From: Candidatus Undinarchaeales archaeon | GTDB taxonomy: Archaea > SpSt-1190 > JASMDC01 | Direction: 5' to 3' | NCBI GenBank assembly: GCA_030753015.1 | Contig: JASMDC010000038.1 | Location: forward strand, 1-25,951 | DNA: 25,951 nt | In this document: positions 301-8,434 of the stretch, one piece after another | Numbering within the stretch: the stretch's first letter is position 1 | Layout: every line of letters begins with the position of its first letter | Notes under the pieces: generated by a model | Told to the model about the DNA's origin: nothing | What the model saw: only the letters and a program-made list of their open reading frames with translations | The model's database searches: none | Program-made: the position numbers and the translations under genes

Positions 301-336
301 CCCACTACCCCCGGAACCGCCCCGTAGGTGTTGGTT

Positions 337-1290
337 ATGTACAGTGCTGCGGACATCGACCTGGAATCCGATGGGTATGCTGCAGCCAACCCTTCTGAAA
401 CGGCCGTCACCACCTGTGACCTTTCAGGATCCCGTCTCACGGGGTATGCAATCAAGGCCGCCATATTCGTTGGCGGCTGCTATGTCCTTGACGCGGTCAC
501 GTCCCTCGCTGGCGGATACACCAACCGCATAGGTCAGGATCCTGACCAGTACCTATCCCCTGACGGGCAGGCACGCGTCGCGGAGGCCCTGGGTACCGAT
601 GAGATCTGGTCCGAGATCGAGCACGATCCCTCGTCCTACTCCGGCCTCGATATCGTCGGTCGCATCCATTCCCGGGTCATGTCGCAGCTCGAGTACGACC
701 AGTCCATCGCCAGCACGGGCATCGATGACGCTCTGAACTCAGGAAAGGGCATCTGCTTTGACTACTCGGGCATGACCTACTCGGCTTTCCTCAAGCTAGC
801 TGCCGACCATCCCGAGCTCAACGAGCAGCTGGCCGCTGTCCAATGGTCGTTCGGTGTGTATGGAGAAGAGGAGATGGCCCATGCATGGCTGCAGGTGCGC
901 GGTGATGATGGTGCATGGCACCATTACGAGACGACCGCCGACTATGTCACAGGCGACATGAGCGAGGGGGACAACGTCATAGATACGCCACCGCTGATGG
1001 AAGGGTACCACACAGCACTGGGTGGCAAGCAGACCGACGCCGCGGGCAACGTCCACAGTTTTGTCGAGTGGGACAAGGTGATCATCCCCGAGATTTCTGC
1101 GGGCGAGCAGCTGGTCAACACATATGAGGTCCTTTCCGGGAACGACATCCCCAACGAGCTCGAGGCGTACCTCCCGCAGAGCCACATCATCGCCGGAGCC
1201 AGCCTTGGTGCCGTCCACGGTACACGGCTCGCACTGAAGGCCGGCTGGGACCTTGTTCGCGGGAAGCACCGGGAAAAAGAAAAGGAGTAG
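337..1290 (+). CDS. Membrane-anchored transglutaminase-like (papain-fold) cysteine protease
   Basis: GKGICFDYS (Cys), AHAWLQV (His), W..YETT where DPT is usual. Hydrophobic segments near both termini. ATG 337 preferred over GTG 328 because of SD spacing. Confidence 0.75.
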   Translation: MYSAADIDLESDGYAAANPSETAVTTCDLSGSRLTGYAIKAAIFVGGCYVLDAVTSLAGGYTNRIGQDPDQYLSPDGQARVAEALGTDEIWSEIEHDPSSYSGLDIVGRIHSRVMSQLEYDQSIASTGIDDALNSGKGICFDYSGMTYSAFLKLAADHPELNEQLAAVQWSFGVYGEEEMAHAWLQVRGDDGAWHHYETTADYVTGDMSEGDNVIDTPPLMEGYHTALGGKQTDAAGNVHSFVEWDKVIIPEISAGEQLVNTYEVLSGNDIPNELEAYLPQSHIIAGASLGAVHGTRLALKAGWDLVRGKHREKEKE

Positions 1291-1377
1291 GCCTTCGCGG
1301 ATCCGCTATCATTATCATCTAGAGTAAGAACTAGATGCGAGGGATTACTCCCCCGCACCTCTGTTCTTTCCGCACCC

Positions 1378-2157
1378 TTACGACGTGAAGGTATCCTGCA
1401 GCTGGTCGATAGCGGCCTGCTTCACCGCTAATTGCTCTTCGAGGTTCGCCATCTGGTACTTGACGTAGAGACCCCCGAAGAACGGCACCTTCGCAAGAAA
1501 GCTGTCCTGGACCTTCTGGGTCCGAGTCACCTGCTCCTCCTCGACCATCTGGTCGAGCTGTTGGTACAATCCCGGATCATCCAGTCCGAGGACCACGGCC
1601 GTATTGCCCGAGGTGTTCGAGTAGCTCGACAGGTCCGCGAGAAGGTCGTACACAACGGTCTTTGTGTCGAGCCTCGCTGCGGTCTGCTGGATGCCAGAGA
1701 TGTCCTCTAGCGCGTCCAGATTCCCGACGAGGTCCCCGGGGAGGCATCCGTAGGCCTGGATGGTCACCGAGAGCGTGTCGGTGTTCCGGGTCACGGTGTT
1801 CGGCCCTGCCGAGAGCGCCTCCTTTGAGACGTTCTCACGTTGGACGAACTTATAGCCCGGTCCGAATCCGATCAGGGTGAGGTAGCCCTCCACCTGGGCA
1901 TGTATTCCGAGCTCATCGCACTGGTCCTCGACCGTGGACAGGGTGTTCAGCAGGTCGTGTTCGCTCACGCCTGACTCGTGCATCGTACCGCTACCCCTCA
2001 TGAGGGAGTAGGAGATGCTCGTCTCAGTTCCAGCGTATACATTCTGCATTCCATTATTGGACGCCACTGCGCCGCCGATCGCATCGAGGAACTCGCAGGT
2101 GTCACCGGACACCTTATCCTCATAGGGCATGTGCACGCGTTCATTCTCAAGGTACAT
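1378..2157 (-). CDS. Hypothetical acidic protein with C-terminal amphipathic/coiled-coil region
   Basis: 259-aa ORF; AGGTGA SD at 2169-2164; TATA-like element near 2191-2199; C-terminal FLAKVPFFGGLY followed by a heptad-like helix. Confidence 0.7.
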   Translation of the reverse strand: MYLENERVHMPYEDKVSGDTCEFLDAIGGAVASNNGMQNVYAGTETSISYSLMRGSGTMHESGVSEHDLLNTLSTVEDQCDELGIHAQVEGYLTLIGFGPGYKFVQRENVSKEALSAGPNTVTRNTDTLSVTIQAYGCLPGDLVGNLDALEDISGIQQTAARLDTKTVVYDLLADLSSYSNTSGNTAVVLGLDDPGLYQQLDQMVEEEQVTRTQKVQDSFLAKVPFFGGLYVKYQMANLEEQLAVKQAAIDQLQDTFTS

Positions 2158-2373
2158 TTGATTTCACCTGAGGCGCCCGAGGACCGATTGTTTTTTATAG
2201 TTATCGTAGGGTACGGGTATATTATCTACGTTATTCGCGTTATTCCACCTAAATGGGACATTATTACGAATTCTTAACGCACATGGGACATCACCCCCTT
2301 GCACCAGTTCACTACCGCGCAGTAACAACAATAACCGGAACATATATATACTGGAAATGCCTACTATACTCCA

Positions 2374-3084
2374 ATGGCGTCTGGTAATAGTGAGGTCGAC
2401 GATTTCATGGCCTCACTGGGTATCAGCACGGAAGAGCTGGACCAGTTGCAGATCAAGACGGACGACGGCTGGGAGTCCGCCTCATCATACGATCCAAAGA
2501 GATGGCAGGACAAACAGGCAACTCGGACAGATCCAGCCCATGGCCAGTATGACACCAAGAACAGTGCGTCATACTCCTCGCTAAAAGCCATGGAGATGGA
2601 CGAGCGGCTCGACATGTACAGTGGCATCAACGTCGGAGGGAATCACCTCATCCACGTAACAACGGACGAAGGTGTGGAGGGCATCCTGAGGGACGGCTAC
2701 ATGAAGGCCGGCGGCGCACAGAAGTACGCGAGCGAGCGTGGCAGCCGCACAGGACGTCCCATAGGAAGGGGCATCTATACCCTTGACACTCACGACGATC
2801 CTTCCCTTGATCAGATCCTGACACCCAACTTCCTCGGTTTTGCGTTCGAGAAATTCCATAATGAGGGCCTCAGGGTGCTGAGGATACCGAAGTACAATCC
2901 CACATCAGGAGCCAACCTCAGGTACGACCTCCCGTCCCGACCGGATCCCGGAGAGCACGGGTACGCCATCATCCAGCAGCAGCAGCTCCCCTATGACAAG
3001 GTCGAGACCCTGGCGTTCAACGGAGCGGGCAAACTGGAGTGGGCACCGATCTCGGAGATCGCGGGGGGCGGTTACTCGCTCTAG
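2374..3084 (+). CDS. Putative ADP-ribosyltransferase-fold protein (H-Y-[E] clade)
   Basis: LIHVTT..GV.GIL..G ... GRGIY ... AII....LP.DKV follows the PARP/Tox-ART pattern HxT..I...G..G.GIY. TATA atatatata at 2342-2350 suggests a leaderless start. Confidence 0.65.
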   Translation: MASGNSEVDDFMASLGISTEELDQLQIKTDDGWESASSYDPKRWQDKQATRTDPAHGQYDTKNSASYSSLKAMEMDERLDMYSGINVGGNHLIHVTTDEGVEGILRDGYMKAGGAQKYASERGSRTGRPIGRGIYTLDTHDDPSLDQILTPNFLGFAFEKFHNEGLRVLRIPKYNPTSGANLRYDLPSRPDPGEHGYAIIQQQQLPYDKVETLAFNGAGKLEWAPISEIAGGGYSL

Positions 3085-3238
3085 TGAACCTCGCAGAAAA
3101 CCGTAAGAAAACGTGGTACTCGGTCCAAATTACAGACAAAAACGAGACAATTTTATTAACCCATAATAAAATATATTAAGGAGAAGCCCCATATTAATCA
3201 ACAGGGCTTTTGCCCTATCGTGACCAAACCGCCTTTGC

Positions 3239-3261
3239 CTTCCCTCTTCTTTTCTCTTTTT
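3239..3261 (+). terminator. Pyrimidine/U-rich archaeal terminator-like tract
   Basis: cttccctcttcttttctcttttt directly abutting the stop of the convergent gene. Confidence 0.5.
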
Positions 3262-3982
3262 ACCCACTAGGGATAAGACCCTCGATTGTCATGGCGGAGA
3301 GGGCCGCGTCCACTATGGACCGCTTACCACGGATACGGACACGCACCTCTCCCTTGCCCGGGTAGATACCGATCTTGGCACCGGTACTCTGAACGATCGC
3401 ATAGATGGGTTCGGCGACAATGGACTCGTCGGGAGTAAGGAGGACACGCTCCTCGACGACCTCGTCACTTGACCCGACCGGAGGAAAGAGCTCGCCCAAA
3501 AAGTGCCTGAGCTCGGAGGGCACACCCGGGAGGAGGTACACGACGAGCGTACCGGACTCGATGCGGATGGCGGGCGCAACACCGACGGCGTTCCTTACAG
3601 GCACCCCGCCCTCCGGGACCCGGGCCATGCGCAGGCGTACGTCCGTGATCTCGCCCTTCCCCCTGCTCCGGTAGGACTCTTCGACCCATTTCTCGACCTG
3701 GGGGTCCACGGCGACGGGGCGCGAGAGCGCGCTCGCAACAGCATCGATGGTGATATCGTCATGCGTGGGGCCCAGACCGCCCGAGACGACAAGGATGTCA
3801 GAGCCGTCACGTGCACGATTGACCTCGGCGACGATGGCGTCAACGTCATCACCCACCACCGACTGGCGGACGATGGTGGTGCCCGCGGTAACGAGCGCCC
3901 GGGCCATGTCGGAGGCATTGGTGTTGACGATCTCCCCACGGAGGACCTCATCGCCTACGCAGAGCACCGTCGCGCGGACCAT
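3260..3982 (-). CDS. Stand-alone COG1058 / CinA N-terminal molybdopterin-binding-like protein (ADP-ribose/FAD pyrophosphatase family)
   Basis: VGDEVLRGEIVNTNA, VGDD, SGGLGPTHDDIT, N.VGVAP, LPGVPSE. No PncC domain. The upstream part of the 481-aa track ORF is a shadow of the plus-strand gene; likely start MVRATV at 3982. Confidence 0.9.
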   Translation of the reverse strand: MVRATVLCVGDEVLRGEIVNTNASDMARALVTAGTTIVRQSVVGDDVDAIVAEVNRARDGSDILVVSGGLGPTHDDITIDAVASALSRPVAVDPQVEKWVEESYRSRGKGEITDVRLRMARVPEGGVPVRNAVGVAPAIRIESGTLVVYLLPGVPSELRHFLGELFPPVGSSDEVVEERVLLTPDESIVAEPIYAIVQSTGAKIGIYPGKGEVRVRIRGKRSIVDAALSAMTIEGLIPSG

Positions 3983-4034
3983 GAAGAGGACCATCCCAGC
4001 AACACATAAAACGGTGAGGGTCGAAAGGATTGGA

Positions 4035-4745
4035 GTGGCGGAGCATGACGACCTCGAGCGCCTGGAGATCTCGTGCAGGTTCAGCGAGAAGCACGAGGAC
4101 TGGGACGAGGCGGCCGAGGGCTGGGAGGTGTTCGCAGCGCTGCAGGGCGAGCAAGGTACCTGGGACAAGGCCGCAGAGGCGCTTGAACATGCGGCCGTCG
4201 ACTGGCGCAAGGCCGGGCTGGACGATGACGAGAACGGCGCATGGCGCAAGGCCGCGAACGCATGGGAGCGAGCCGAGCAGAGCGACAAGGCAGCGGTCGC
4301 CGCGGAGAACGCACGCGACTGGACACGTGCCATCGGCCTGTGGCGGTCACTGGACAGAGAGGATGACCTGACAAACGCCCTGGAGAAGGCCCATCTCTGG
4401 GAAGAGGCCGCACCCCGTTGGGAGAAGAAGGGTGACTGGAAGCGGGCAGCTAAGGACTGGGAGCGCGTGAAGGAGTGGGGGAAGGCGGCTGCTGCATGGG
4501 AAAAGGCAGAGTTCCCGGTGACCGCTGCCGACCTGTATGAGCGCGTGGGGAACGCAGATGCGGTGAGCCGCCTGCTGGCCACGGTTGCAGAGAAGCGGGC
4601 AGAGGCCCAACGGCTCGAGGTGAGGGAGAGGTTCGAGGAGGCCGCGAAGCAGTGGGAACGCGTGGGTGAGATCGAACGTGCCAACCTCTGCGTACGCCAG
4701 CACAACCTGCGTCTCGAGAAGGAGCGCTCGCGTGAAGTTTTATAA
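4035..4745 (+). CDS. Alpha-solenoid (TPR/SNAP-like) protein with 13-aa Trp repeats
   Basis: WEEAAPRWEKKGD/WKRAAKDWERVKE/WGKAAAAWEKAEF/PVTAADLYERVGN. GTG start at 4035 chosen to avoid overlap with the divergent COG1058 gene. Confidence 0.75.
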   Translation: MAEHDDLERLEISCRFSEKHEDWDEAAEGWEVFAALQGEQGTWDKAAEALEHAAVDWRKAGLDDDENGAWRKAANAWERAEQSDKAAVAAENARDWTRAIGLWRSLDREDDLTNALEKAHLWEEAAPRWEKKGDWKRAAKDWERVKEWGKAAAAWEKAEFPVTAADLYERVGNADAVSRLLATVAEKRAEAQRLEVRERFEEAAKQWERVGEIERANLCVRQHNLRLEKERSREVL

Positions 4746-4900
4746 ACGATCTCGACACTTTCATGACCTAGGTACCCTACTTCTAGATACCGGTTTATCG
4801 CTCTAATTATTAATATCGTGATAGGTCATATCAAAATAAGTATCCTTTAAAAACGATGAACGGAATCACAATCCTTACCCAGTCTGATAGGTGAGAGGGA

Positions 4901-5971
4901 ATGGACTTCATTATAGAAAATGCCCTGAAGAACACGCGTGAAACACCGGATTTCATGGACGCCGTTGGAGCACCCCGCATATTCGTTGTCGGGTGTGGTG
5001 GGGCTGGTAACAACAGCATCCACCGACTTCACAACATGGGTGTCAGCGGCGCAGAGATCATTGCGATCAACACGGACAAGCAGCACCTGGACAACAGGCA
5101 CGCGGACACCAAGATCCTTATAGGGGCCGAGGTCACCCGTGGTCTCGGTGCCGGCGGATTCCCTGATGTCGGGAAGAAGGCGGCCGAGGAGTCCAAGCAT
5201 GAGCTCCAGCAAGCGATAGGGAACGCCGACCTCGTGTTCATCACGGCAGGTATGGGCGGTGGTACCGGAACCGGCTCGGCCCCCATCGTGGGCGAGATCG
5301 CCCGCAACAAGGGCGCCATCGTGATCGGTGTCGTGACGATGCCCTTCTCCCTGGAACGGGCACGGCGCATGAAAGCCGAGACCGGCCTTCTCGAGCTGCG
5401 CAAGCAGGCCGACACGGTCATCGTCATCGAGAACAACCGGCTCGTCGAGGTCGCAGGGAAGCTCCCGCTCGGGCAGGCGTTCGCCGTGGCGGACGAGCTG
5501 ATCGCCATGATGATCAAGGGTATCGTGGAGACAATCGCTGTCCCCTCGCTCATGAACCTCGACTACGCGGACGTCAAGGCCATCATGCGCGATGGCGGAG
5601 TGGCCATGATCGGTGTTGGCGAGGCCACGGGCGAGAAGAAGGCACATGACGCTCTCCAGAAGGCGCTGACCACACCGCTCATCGATGTGGACTACAAGGG
5701 CGCGACGGGCGCGCTGGTGCACATAACCGGTGGACCCGACCTGACCCTTGCCGAGGCCAACGAGATCGGTGACCTTGTGAGCCACAACCTGGACGCGTCA
5801 GCAGGCGTCATCTGGGGCGCGCGCGTTGACGACGACATGGAGGGCCGCATCCGGGTGATCACCATCATCACCGGTGTGAACTCGACCTGCATCCTCGGAG
5901 CGAACCAGGAGAAGAACGAGACGAAGGACGTTTCGAGCCGCTTCAAGGACATCGGCCTGGACATGATCTAG
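4901..5971 (+). CDS. ftsZ: Cell division GTPase FtsZ, archaeal FtsZ2 type
   Basis: GGAGNN, INTD, GGGTGTG, NLDYAD, VHITGGPDLTL, IWGAR; C-terminal GLDMI; AGGTGA SD-like upstream. Confidence 0.97.
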   Translation: MDFIIENALKNTRETPDFMDAVGAPRIFVVGCGGAGNNSIHRLHNMGVSGAEIIAINTDKQHLDNRHADTKILIGAEVTRGLGAGGFPDVGKKAAEESKHELQQAIGNADLVFITAGMGGGTGTGSAPIVGEIARNKGAIVIGVVTMPFSLERARRMKAETGLLELRKQADTVIVIENNRLVEVAGKLPLGQAFAVADELIAMMIKGIVETIAVPSLMNLDYADVKAIMRDGGVAMIGVGEATGEKKAHDALQKALTTPLIDVDYKGATGALVHITGGPDLTLAEANEIGDLVSHNLDASAGVIWGARVDDDMEGRIRVITIITGVNSTCILGANQEKNETKDVSSRFKDIGLDMI

Positions 5972-5982
5972 GCCTGGACCAC

Positions 5983-6018
5983 GGCCGGGTCCTTCGGGGC
6001 CCGGCCACCCTCTCTTCT
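5983..6018 (+). terminator. GC stem with cUUCGg tetraloop followed by a pyrimidine tract
   Basis: ggccgggtcc-ttcg-gggcccggcc (5983-6006; one G-U pair), then accctctcttct. Confidence 0.6.
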
Positions 6019-6076
6019 CCGGGGACCGCTTCTCCGGAGCCATCTATTTATAGAATAGACATGCCTCTCATTCTCA

Positions 6077-6628
6077 ATGGGTCGCATGGGTTTCCTGCAT
6101 GCTCGCAAACTCCGCAAGGCGCGGGAGGACCGTGAGCTCGCCGCTTTGAAAGGTCCATCCCAGGAGCGGCAGGAGACAGAGGAAGAGGTACATGCCCGCG
6201 TAAGGCTCGAGGAGCCCATCATGGCGTCCTGGGAACAGGGGCCGTCAGTAGAAAAGCTCGCCGACTCCCTCGAGCAGGCCGCAAGCGACCTGGAGTCGAT
6301 CGGGCGGGCGCGGGAGGACCTCTCAGGTCTCGGGGACAGGGGCCATGACGAACCGGCCCCGGTGTTCGATGAGCGGAGCGAACGCGCAGGTGAGGTCGGT
6401 GGATCCTCGAGGGAGCAACCCGTGCGCCAGCGTGGCCCCGGAGATGTCCAGGCACCGGACCAGGCAGTGCTCGACGACCTCGCTGAGCATCGACAAACGA
6501 TCATCGCGCACCTCGAGAACATGCGCCAGCGGATAATTGACGATCCGCTCCTCTCGCAGGAGGACCGCGATACGCTCCTGGCAAAGATCCAGCGCAAGCT
6601 CAACGATGCCCGCGGGCTCACAAGTTGA
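6077..6628 (+). CDS. Hypothetical charged protein with disordered middle and C-terminal helical hairpin
   Basis: 183-aa ORF; TATA tatttata about 25 nt upstream. Confidence 0.65.
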   Translation: MGRMGFLHARKLRKAREDRELAALKGPSQERQETEEEVHARVRLEEPIMASWEQGPSVEKLADSLEQAASDLESIGRAREDLSGLGDRGHDEPAPVFDERSERAGEVGGSSREQPVRQRGPGDVQAPDQAVLDDLAEHRQTIIAHLENMRQRIIDDPLLSQEDRDTLLAKIQRKLNDARGLTS

Positions 6629-7412
6629 GCAGACGTCGCGCGTTCCCGCCGAGTATGAGCTCTTTCTCGTCCTTATCAAGTGGGAGGATGTCGATCTTCA
6701 TACGCTCAACGCTCGGATGGGAGAAGGGTGAGTCCGATCCGAAGAGGATGCGCTCCGGGCCGTAAGCCGCCGCCGCGATCAGGATGTCGGCGTGGACCGC
6801 GGTGGACGTTTCGAAGTAGACGTTGGGGATGTTCCGGAGCTTCTCCCTAGTGCGGTCCTCGTGTCGCCCAAGGTGGCCCACGATCAGCTTGAGCTTGGGG
6901 AACTGGCGGGCCAGTGGGATGAACTTGACCGGCGTAGTAAAGCTAACGTCCCCACGGAGCCGTTCCTCGCTGGGGATGTACTCGCTGTGGATGAGCACGG
7001 GCATTCGTTCCTCCTCGGCGATGTGGAGTATGTTGTAAAGACGGGGATCGTCGAGACCGAACGCCTGCGTCCGCGGATGGAGCTTGATGCCAAGGGCTCC
7101 CTTCTTGATGCAGCGCTTGAGCTCGCCCACACCCTTGTTCTTCGGGTTGAGCCGGCAGAAGGCGAGCAGGCGCGGATGCTCGTCGCATGTATCGAAGATA
7201 AGGTCGTTCTCCTTGCGGAACGTGCCGTCCTTGCTCCGGCCGAAGGGGAACGTCACGGACTTTTCAATGCCCGCCGCGTCCATCTTTTCGATTATATCCT
7301 TGCCGAACTGCTTGAATAGGAGCTCGTCAGGATTGAACATGGTCTGCGGGTGCTTGACCGGTTCGTCCGTTCGCCCGCCCTTCCCGATGTGGTTGTGGAA
7401 ATCGATGATCAT
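6618..7412 (-). CDS. Amidohydrolase_2 family TIM-barrel metallohydrolase
   Basis: IIDFHNH, GIKLHP, PVLIH, IVGHLG, ILFGSDSP, GGNARRLL. ATG 7412 preferred over GTG 7433 given the TATA near 7441-7447. Confidence 0.92.
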   Translation of the reverse strand: MIIDFHNHIGKGGRTDEPVKHPQTMFNPDELLFKQFGKDIIEKMDAAGIEKSVTFPFGRSKDGTFRKENDLIFDTCDEHPRLLAFCRLNPKNKGVGELKRCIKKGALGIKLHPRTQAFGLDDPRLYNILHIAEEERMPVLIHSEYIPSEERLRGDVSFTTPVKFIPLARQFPKLKLIVGHLGRHEDRTREKLRNIPNVYFETSTAVHADILIAAAAYGPERILFGSDSPFSHPSVERMKIDILPLDKDEKELILGGNARRLLNL

Positions 7413-7662
7413 CGGACCTGTTGAATTGCTCACCTTCTTTTTATAAAGGCTCAGGATGGCACCGGGGATCGCGACCTCGCGGCCAATTCTACGAATAACG
7501 AAGTGCAGGCGATGCCAATGGACACAAAACGCAATCTATAAAAGGCGGAAGGGGGGCGATAAGACCTCTTGGGGGTCCGGAAAGCAGCCTCATCCGCTTG
7601 AAACAAAGTATATACACAATATACCCAAGTGATTAAAGGAAGTGACCGGACCGGGGTACGCA

Positions 7663-8364
7663 ATGATGATGGAAATCGACCTTGACTCTTATGGTCTTGA
7701 TGATGGTGCGTCGGCCCATACCGCCGACATGTACTCCTCGAGCGATGATCTGGACATGCGCGACCACGCTACGGCTCTCGTAACGATCGGGGCCGGTATA
7801 GCTGCGCTCACCCTGGGCGCGGCGGCCGTGCAATATGGTACGAGGTATGCCGAGCACAAGGGTGCCTATGACGAGCACCCTGACGGTATCGAGGCCACCA
7901 AGTGGGGGAAGATAGAGGAAGATCTGTCCGATGCCCAGCGCGATCTGAAGGACTATGACTATACCACGACGACCTATATACCCATGCGCTCGGGCGACGT
8001 CACCATCATGATGCCCATCACCCATTACCACCACCACGCCCCTGATCCCGCTTCCGCCGGTGGCCACATCGCTGCAGCAGAAGGGTATCTGGCGCAGGTG
8101 AAGGACGGGTCCGATGCCGTGACCGGCGCGCTCGATATGGCTCGCGATGGGATCGCTGCGGGCGAGTACAACGGCGCCATGGACATCCTCGGTAGCATGG
8201 CCAGGAGCGCGGGTGGCCAGGAGGCCTCGTACATCGACCAGACCCAGCCCATCTATGACGAGATGCAGAGTGCTCTCACCGGGACCGTGCTCACCGGCAT
8301 CGGCGCGGGTGCCGCGGGCATCACTGCCGGGATCGCGGCCAAGAAGTGGCACGATGAGCAGTAG
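7663..8364 (+). CDS. Orphan membrane protein with acidic N-tail, two Gly/Ala-rich hydrophobic segments and a His cluster
   Basis: ALVTIGAGIAALTLGAAAV and VLTGIGAGAAGITAGIAA; internal THYHHH; TATA aagtatata near 7606-7614. Confidence 0.7.
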   Translation: MMMEIDLDSYGLDDGASAHTADMYSSSDDLDMRDHATALVTIGAGIAALTLGAAAVQYGTRYAEHKGAYDEHPDGIEATKWGKIEEDLSDAQRDLKDYDYTTTTYIPMRSGDVTIMMPITHYHHHAPDPASAGGHIAAAEGYLAQVKDGSDAVTGALDMARDGIAAGEYNGAMDILGSMARSAGGQEASYIDQTQPIYDEMQSALTGTVLTGIGAGAAGITAGIAAKKWHDEQ

Positions 8365-8434
8365 GTCCCGTTGACGTCCCGGGCGCGTGCTCGCAGGACT
8401 AAGCAATAAAAGGCTTGACATCCATCCCGCGAAC

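Follow-up and report, generated by a model that had tools for sequence, protein, structure and literature searches.

The window analysed here is an entire contig of 25,951 bp (C49) from a 3.85-Mb, 117-contig assembly of a Candidatus Undinarchaeales archaeon (G000), and it contains an orphan gene, P0001 (2374-3084, plus strand), which is a genuine, strongly constrained and genus-restricted gene. The C-terminal domain of its product probably has the fold of an ADP-ribosyltransferase (ART), and we lean towards regarding the protein as a new, highly divergent, lineage-restricted ART-like family with an acidic N-terminal module; that it is an active enzyme using nicotinamide adenine dinucleotide (NAD) is about evenly balanced. 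The orphan converges on a gene encoding a COG1058 protein. An original prediction, made from the DNA letters, had proposed that the orphan is an ART which either works together with this neighbour or acts as a toxin; a functional pairing of the two genes is improbable.

A constrained gene restricted to one genus

A second genome of the same genus (G001) encodes an orthologue of the orphan at the same genomic place, with 84% identity. The ratio of nonsynonymous to synonymous substitution rates (dN/dS), determined by the method of Nei and Gojobori against this orthologue, amounted to 0.118 overall with a dS of 0.87; residues 1-83 had a ratio of 0.283 and residues 84-236 one of 0.063, with a dS of about 0.9-1.0. 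The stretch 1378-3982 was present in 20 listed sequencing runs from 12 studies, all of them marine or seawater metagenomes, of which 7 may be the source of the window DNA itself. In contigs of four runs from four studies the orphan was intact in every case and had no variable position, as compared to 8 in the COG1058 gene, and a single contig of run X8 spanned both genes. Since dN/dS is low and the gene is intact and invariant in the runs, the orphan is a real gene, and it is under purifying selection.

The orphan status stated in the original prediction was borne out, as only copies with 84-86% identity were found in cluster searches. Among 5.8 billion clusters, two others, both 86% identical, were the only relatives in sequence (3 proteins out of 530 candidates), and one cluster only was found among 1.84 billion 50% representatives. 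A relaxed search (E ≤ 10) with a profile of the C-terminal domain gave the 3 known proteins among 65 candidates and nothing new. No relatives were detected in JGI metagenome contigs and IMG/VR (alignments A1 and A2), and a tblastn search gave one chance match in phages (E 9) and none in plasmids. Among 61 archaeal genomes, significant matches were confined to G000 and G001. Of seven weak matches in other archaea (E 0.03-0.41), two were inspected and both look like chance, one reading, as judged by eye, like the B subunit of an A/V-ATPase and the other being a long acidic protein of surface type.

The acidic N-terminal extension, predicted to comprise about 85 residues, was found at residues 1-83, where Asp and Glu account for 20.5% and Lys and Arg for 9.6% of the residues; long open reading frames (ORFs) of G000 average 13.3% and 10.3%, respectively. 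Two blocks are conserved in the extension, EVDDFM.SLGIS..ELD.LQI and GW.S.SSY.PKRW, and neither a signal peptide nor a hydrophobic segment was seen on inspection of its sequence. These 83 residues are probably a separate, less constrained module with a regulatory or partner-binding function.

Motifs and fold of the C-terminal domain

The C-terminal domain carries the motifs H94-V-T, G103-I-L-R-D-G108, G131-R-G-I-Y135 and G193-E-H-G-Y-A-I-I200, and all of their residues are the same in every one of the 3-4 copies known, apart from an exchange of Arg and Lys at position 132. The predicted HVT and GRGIY motifs are present, but the predicted spacing HVT..I...G is slightly off, since I104 lies 8 residues past T96. 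According to PMC8120803, HX[S/T] is the ribose-contacting motif of ARTs; H94 would fit this motif and Y135 would fit the aromatic position. A signature of H, [RK], [FY] and [DE], given for the Tox-ART-HYD1 family in PMC3482391, can be read in the orphan in this order, but it is not strict enough to serve as a test. A loose pattern defined after the fact (H.[ST], 25-50 residues, G.G[ILVM][YF]) was matched by 4 of 1780 G000 ORFs of at least 300 aa, stricter forms by 0 of 1780. This corresponds to a chance rate of ~0.001 per 236-aa protein, so that a few cases per genome are expected and the motifs alone are not significant.

Residues 84-236 were then compared with the ESM Atlas by feature embedding. 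The nearest clusters were two of Tox-ART-HYD1 (PF15633), which comprises ART toxin domains of bacterial polymorphic toxins; they account for 4 of 30 matches and reach 0.95, a value also obtained with about one in 100 shuffled proteins. With PF15633 excluded and only named clusters considered, a PARP-labelled viral (phage) cluster followed at 0.92 (3 matches), only 16% of whose members carry PF00644, and Arr-ms clusters were found at up to 0.91 (24 of 30 matches). The ten best named matches all share one clan, and the feature neighbours all belong to families of the ART clan. The Atlas model of the exact orphan protein has a predicted template modelling (TM) score of 0.60 and a predicted local distance difference test (pLDDT) of 0.64. 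Its only named structural neighbours are clusters of DUF952, likewise an ART-clan family (TM 0.50-0.53 over residues 88-234), and unnamed viral or phage proteins align to it at TM 0.56-0.60.

Profiles were aligned by hhalign with natural homologues, namely 87 fragments of Tpt1 from 80 loci, 15 sequences of Arr and, for DUF952, 9 of 10 rows. The alignment with Tpt1 had a score of 20.75 (P 0.013, probability 3.4%) and placed NHLIHVTTDEGVEGILRDG on LYHGT...IL.EGL and EGLRVLRI on the G-I-k-I-y-K strand; as a control, 110 segments of 153 aa were drawn at random from long G000 ORFs, and 2 of them reached this score, as did none of 50 shuffles. The same His of the orphan, H94, was the anchor in all three runs, on LYHGT of Tpt1, HGT of Arr and HcST of DUF952. 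The feature embedding, the structural neighbours in the Atlas and the alignment with the Tpt1 profile lean to one superfamily, albeit indirectly. We infer the fold, the use of NAD, catalysis and the roles of the residues.

A number of results weigh against an ART. Searches of Pfam, PHROGs, PADLOC and NCBIfam at E up to 10 gave no match for the orphan, and its PDB matches by sequence and profile were no better than E 0.95. Hidden Markov models (HMMs) of PF15633, PF12120, PF06108, PF00644 and PF14487 found nothing in the G000 genome at E ≤ 10, nor did PF01885 at E ≤ 1e-5. AlphaFold2 models of the full-length protein (alignment of 3 sequences) and of residues 80-236 (2 sequences) had a pLDDT of 34.4 and 32.7, respectively, and were unusable; Foldseek against the PDB with the latter gave a best E of 1.2 and TM ≤ 0.34 without any ART, a result that is meaningless at that model quality. 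In the Atlas, the counts of shared features (149 and 145 of 256) stayed under the 170 typical of same-family matches, a third of shuffled proteins also obtain 10/10 clan agreement, and the feature and structure searches are one source of evidence. The hhalign results for Arr (P 0.45) and DUF952 (P 0.15) were not significant, and the probability for Tpt1 was low. No RNA run was among the listed sequencing runs with the stretch. Besides, the third catalytic residue has several candidates: around GEHGYAII it is as ambiguous as originally predicted, with E194 not separable from E164, D185, D191, D208 and E211, all of them invariant, and two registers are possible. The second register, from the low-confidence Arr alignment, is H94/Y118/D141-142, with IYTLDT-HDDPS on IYVVEPTG..EDDPN of Arr and the GRGIY strand before the catalytic Asp.

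These results make up much of the case for a lineage-specific alpha/beta protein of another fold, whose motifs and language-model neighbours would be coincidental: no HMM, profile or PDB sequence matched, AlphaFold2 failed twice, Foldseek on a poor model returned noise only and hhalign probabilities did not exceed 3.4%, while shuffled proteins can reach the same Atlas values and the motif pattern predicts a few chance cases per genome. On the other hand, three kinds of signal agree on the superfamily, with the His unit at one spot in all of them, and no competing family appeared in any search. We consider another fold rather unlikely. The original assignment to the ARTs is supported indirectly by the Atlas neighbours and the marginal Tpt1 alignment, which make no use of the motifs noted originally, but it obtained no confirmation from HMMs, a confident three-dimensional model or a fold search.

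Comparison with known ART families

The orphan resembles several ART families in part. Tox-ART-HYD1, its nearest family in the Atlas, is likewise a small domain (97-position profile; Atlas clusters of 124-134 aa), but there is no HMM match of at least 25 bits and none at E ≤ 10, whether in the protein or in the genome. No member of this family was found in 17 genomes of the window's phylum or in 401 of a second phylum, and 285 genomes of a third gave a single marginal match (24.9 bits). Tox-ART-HYD1 forms the C-terminal tip of secreted toxins of the RHS, type VI or type VII kind, whereas the orphan, an archaeal protein of the cytoplasm, stands alone and bears an acidic N-terminal extension, and no immunity gene of the Imm-My6CBD type was seen near it. 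According to PMC3482391, the domain is the C-terminal toxin module of secreted polymorphic toxins that are encoded beside an immunity gene; the orphan has neither a signal nor a delivery domain, and no known immunity family was found among its neighbours, orf259 and COG1058.

Arr (PF12120; M. smegmatis Arr, PDB 2HW2, H19-Y49-D84) is a minimal rifamycin ART of ~16 kDa with no obvious likeness to other ARTs. It provides most of the named feature matches, and its HGT unit aligns on the HVT of the orphan, but there was no HMM match at E ≤ 10 and the hhalign P against the 15 homologues was the one given above; the hallmark blocks NHVYFT, GRIYVVEPTG and EDDPNVTDKKFPGNPT of these homologues are absent from the orphan, which has only a faint echo of the form IY....DDP. 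DUF952 (PF06108; Caulobacter CC0527; ART-like H-H-h) is a structural neighbour of similar size. It differs by the lack of an HMM match (E ≤ 10) and a non-significant hhalign result with 9 homologues, and the orphan has a Tyr in its GxGIY strand where DUF952 has the H-H-h arrangement. For Tpt1/KptA (PF01885, RNA 2'-phosphotransferase), LIHVTTDEGVEGILRDG of the orphan lies on the LYHGT...IL.EGL unit of the ART domain, but the orphan has no N-terminal winged-helix domain, none of the invariant catalytic residues of LRH.P and RA.YGHS, and no HMM match.

The PARP core (PF00644, H-Y-E) gave the first named match after exclusion of HYD1. The H-x-T, GIL..G and G-[KR]-G-I-Y..D blocks of the orphan are reminiscent of the PARP blocks HGS, ILSQGL and GKGIYFAD. 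The orphan differs from PARPs in having no HMM match, a domain of half the size and neither regulatory nor PARP-alpha-helical domains.

We propose that the ORF encodes a cytoplasmic, lineage-restricted protein whose C-terminal ~150 residues would be a very divergent ART of the H-Y-[E/D] branch, which comprises minimal Arr, Tox-ART-HYD1, DUF952, Tpt1 and PARP-core proteins. Strand 1 with H94-V-T and the next helix with GILRDG would bind the riboses of NAD+, Y135 of GRGIY would stack against the nicotinamide and a downstream invariant acidic residue, possibly E164, D185, D191 or E194 or, in the alternative register, D141 or D142, would stabilise the oxocarbenium intermediate. ADP-ribose may then be passed to an acceptor, which could be a protein, a nucleic-acid end or a small molecule. 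The gene would be transcribed from its own conserved promoter and its adjacency to COG1058 would most likely be incidental. For this proposal as a whole, mechanism included, we see an even chance.

To our knowledge, enzymes of the ART superfamily are poorly documented in archaea apart from Tpt1/KptA. If the orphan is an active ART, it represents a new family that can be detected by language-model and structure methods only, and it opens a way to study NAD-dependent modification in an abundant, uncultured lineage of marine archaea; in minimal ARTs such as Arr the fold can lie under the detection limit of sequence methods. If it is not, it warns that one can be misled by HxT and GxGIY motifs in combination with embedding neighbours, and that a functional pairing should not be read from adjacency to a widespread housekeeping gene.

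The genomic neighbourhood and competing functions

The protein encoded at 3260-3982 is, by its sequence matches, a COG1058/CinA N-terminal domain protein of the ADP-ribose pyrophosphatase family. It matched PF00994 (MoCF_biosynth, 2.3e-31), weakly CinA_KH (PF18146, 7.5e-05) and PRK01215 of NCBIfam (9e-47), and in the PDB CinA of T. thermophilus (4ct8, 1.8e-28) and Ta0487 (3kbq, 1.1e-27). Neither PncC nor any further domain was found in its 240 residues, in agreement with the original prediction. According to PMC3680494, archaeal COG1058 proteins are always single-domain and occur in about half of archaeal genomes, so the absence of PncC is the default and no peculiarity. The same paper reports ADP-ribose pyrophosphatase activity for bacterial COG1058 members, with ADP-ribose as the preferred substrate.

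This preference suits the idea that the orphan is an endogenous NAD-consuming writer and that the adjacent COG1058 protein clears or recycles free ADP-ribose, as do the adjacency of the genes in both orphan-bearing genomes, bridged once by the X8 contig, and the 175-bp spacer shared by their 3' ends, in which the transcripts could overlap. However, the genes are convergent and separate, each with its own promoter side, and form no operon. The COG1058 orthologue in G001 is 73% identical, and the 8 variable positions in the COG1058 gene against none in the orphan give no sign of a shared constraint. G000 and G001 are of one genus, and all 12 genes compared in the region are collinear between them; therefore, the shared adjacency, which can be checked in one genus only, is uninformative. 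Of 59 archaeal genomes outside the genus, 10 encode homologues of the COG1058 protein with 33-39% identity and lack the orphan, and both genes are missing from the 15 small-genome members of the phylum. As to the co-occurrence with COG1058 or macrodomain genes raised in the original prediction, COG1058 is widespread without the orphan, the one macrodomain gene of G000 is unlinked (C75) and an ADP-ribosylhydrolase (ARH) was not found in the G000 genome. The predicted clean-up partnership is accordingly improbable, and a wider version, in which a new family of minimal H-Y-[D/E] ARTs performs regulated endogenous ADP-ribosylation and COG1058 recycles the ADP-ribose as a native archaeal signalling module outside the Tpt1 family, is a shade more improbable still.

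The divergent neighbour of the orphan, orf259, is relevant to the other predicted function, a toxin or defence effector, which could resemble Tox-ART-HYD1 or DarT; neutralisation would then fall to orf259, to the acidic N-terminus of the orphan itself or to the macrodomain protein encoded elsewhere. The family of orf259 is lineage-specific and has five members in G000, namely the window copy, three tandem copies on C106 and one on C76; the paralogues (C106:26120-28721 and C76:2500-3264) have 29-34% identity and share the N-terminal block MPYE.DVS..TY..LGAIGE. Pfam, PADLOC and NCBIfam gave no match for orf259. The multi-copy nature of orf259, its promoter region shared with the orphan and the position of the C76 copy beside an N-terminal integrase fragment would be in line with a conflict system. 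So would the macrodomain gene, the polymorphic-toxin family as top Atlas match, the phage proteins among the structural neighbours and the restriction to one genus, which is frequent in accessory conflict genes. Against this stand the lack of a PADLOC match for the orphan and orf259, with only a chance-level match of 11.4 bits for the transglutaminase-like gene of the locus, and the absence of a secretion signal, RHS, PAAR or other delivery domain in the orphan. DarT (PF14487) itself had no HMM match at E ≤ 10, and the single macrodomain gene of G000 lies on a different contig. None of the four orf259 paralogues is flanked by an ART-like gene, the interval 2100-3300 was free of repeats and of ends of mobile elements, and the orphan is under strong purifying selection without diversification. 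The context is of a housekeeping kind, with an ABC (ATP-binding cassette) transporter before the transglutaminase-like gene in G001 and then COG1058, FtsZ and aTrm56. The predicted reading as a toxin without immunity gene is unsupported: the locus showed no signal for secretion, no defence genes, no mobile elements and no partner resembling an immunity gene, and we rate a toxin or defence function as low in probability.

Further, the orphan could have an ART fold without being a protein transferase, acting like Tpt1 on phosphorylated RNA ends or serving as a non-catalytic NAD- or ADP-ribose-binding domain like DUF952. The best profile score was that of Tpt1, canonical Tpt1 (PF01885) is absent from G000 and G001 but found in 11 of the 61 genomes searched, and DUF952, which has no known activity, provides the only named structural neighbours. 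However, the N-terminal domain of Tpt1 and its invariant LRH.P, R and RA.YGHS (alignment A4) have no counterpart in the orphan, the alignment is limited to the C-terminal His unit and the families ranked in the feature search are HYD1, PARP and Arr rather than Tpt1. The chance of such a function is very slight, and a divergent ART of the H-Y-[E/D] branch is preferred.

Promoter region, spacers and host genome

The features of the locus are compiled in Table 1. The 40 bp before the ATG of the orphan are identical in G001. Archaeal promoters have a typical spacing between TATA box and start, and by this measure the TATA-like element suggests a leaderless or near-leaderless transcript of the orphan. 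The two copies of ATGGGACAT, 30 bp apart, are candidate regulator-binding sites.

Table 1 Features of the orphan locus in the window (strand given where assigned)
Feature	Positions	Strand	Basis or remark
orf259, divergent neighbour, lineage-specific multi-copy family	1378..2157	-	no Pfam, PADLOC or NCBIfam match
9-mer ATGGGACAT, two copies in the divergent orf259/orphan promoter region	2253-2261, 2283-2291	.	both conserved in G001
TATA-like ATATATATA, centred ~28 nt before the ATG	2342..2350	+	block ACCGGAACATATATATACTGGAAATGCCTACTATACTC identical in G001
Orphan gene P0001	2374..3084	+	open ORF, 236 aa plus stop; single copy in G000; real protein-coding gene
Acidic N-terminal extension, residues 1-83	2374..2622	+	D+E 20.5%, weaker constraint (dN/dS 0.283)
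C-terminal domain, residues 84-236, predicted divergent ART-like fold	2623..3081	+	dN/dS 0.063, Atlas, hhalign
H94-V95-T96, candidate NAD-ribose-contacting HX[S/T] motif, strand 1	2653..2661	+	invariant; aligned to the His of Tpt1, Arr and DUF952
G131-R-G-I-Y135, candidate nicotinamide-stacking Tyr strand	2764..2778	+	invariant except R/K132; putative assignment
G193-E-H-G-Y-A-I-I200, one of several candidate third (acidic) catalytic sites	2950..2973	+	invariant
Convergent spacer, A+T-rich, T-runs on both strands, ends of both transcripts	3085..3259	.	sequence
COG1058/CinA-N gene (P0002), stand-alone, housekeeping type, 240 aa	3260..3982	-	Pfam, NCBIfam and PDB matches

An unusual conservation of the spacer 3085-3259 was considered and dropped, as its 85% identity to G001 is within the 76-86% of other spacers. 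This spacer matched no Rfam family and, with fold z-scores of -0.45 and -1.44, is not notably structured. Most spacers in 1291-8386, compared with locus L010 of G001, are 76-86% identical; the one after the transglutaminase-like gene (87 bp here and 570 bp in G001) could not be aligned. Since the spacers are more conserved than synonymous sites in the orphan, of which about half differ, they seem densely packed with constrained signals. A scan for sigma-70 promoters and intrinsic terminators was set aside as uninformative for an archaeon.

Archaeal markers on the contig are FtsZ, aTrm56, RadA, RPA, DHQ synthase II and EPSP synthase. G000 and G001 (3.6-3.8 Mb, ~5% contamination) are the only large genomes of the phylum, the other 15 species representatives having 0.6-1.2 Mb, and G000 has three FtsZ-like genes, on C49, C65 (70% identity) and C25 (46%). 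Behind the genome size and the FtsZ copies is either a large-genome lineage of an unusual kind or mixed bins.

Within the COG1058 gene, ~35 bp at 3748-3785 match contigs of other, more abundant organisms in 4 of 4 runs, with depth spikes and loose ends; this is a very conserved motif region of the COG1058 family and not a joint in this genome. The transglutaminase-like protein (328-1290, plus strand; Transglut_core 7.3e-05) is 48.6% identical to its G001 counterpart, as compared to 73-96% for neighbouring genes, and has a 47% paralogue on C72. Between COG1058 and FtsZ, the gene at 4047-4745 (plus strand) encodes an acidic, Trp-rich repeat protein with a weak SNAP/TPR-like match (2.6e-4), which shows 90% conservation in G001; weak paralogues of it are located on C28, C21 and C55.

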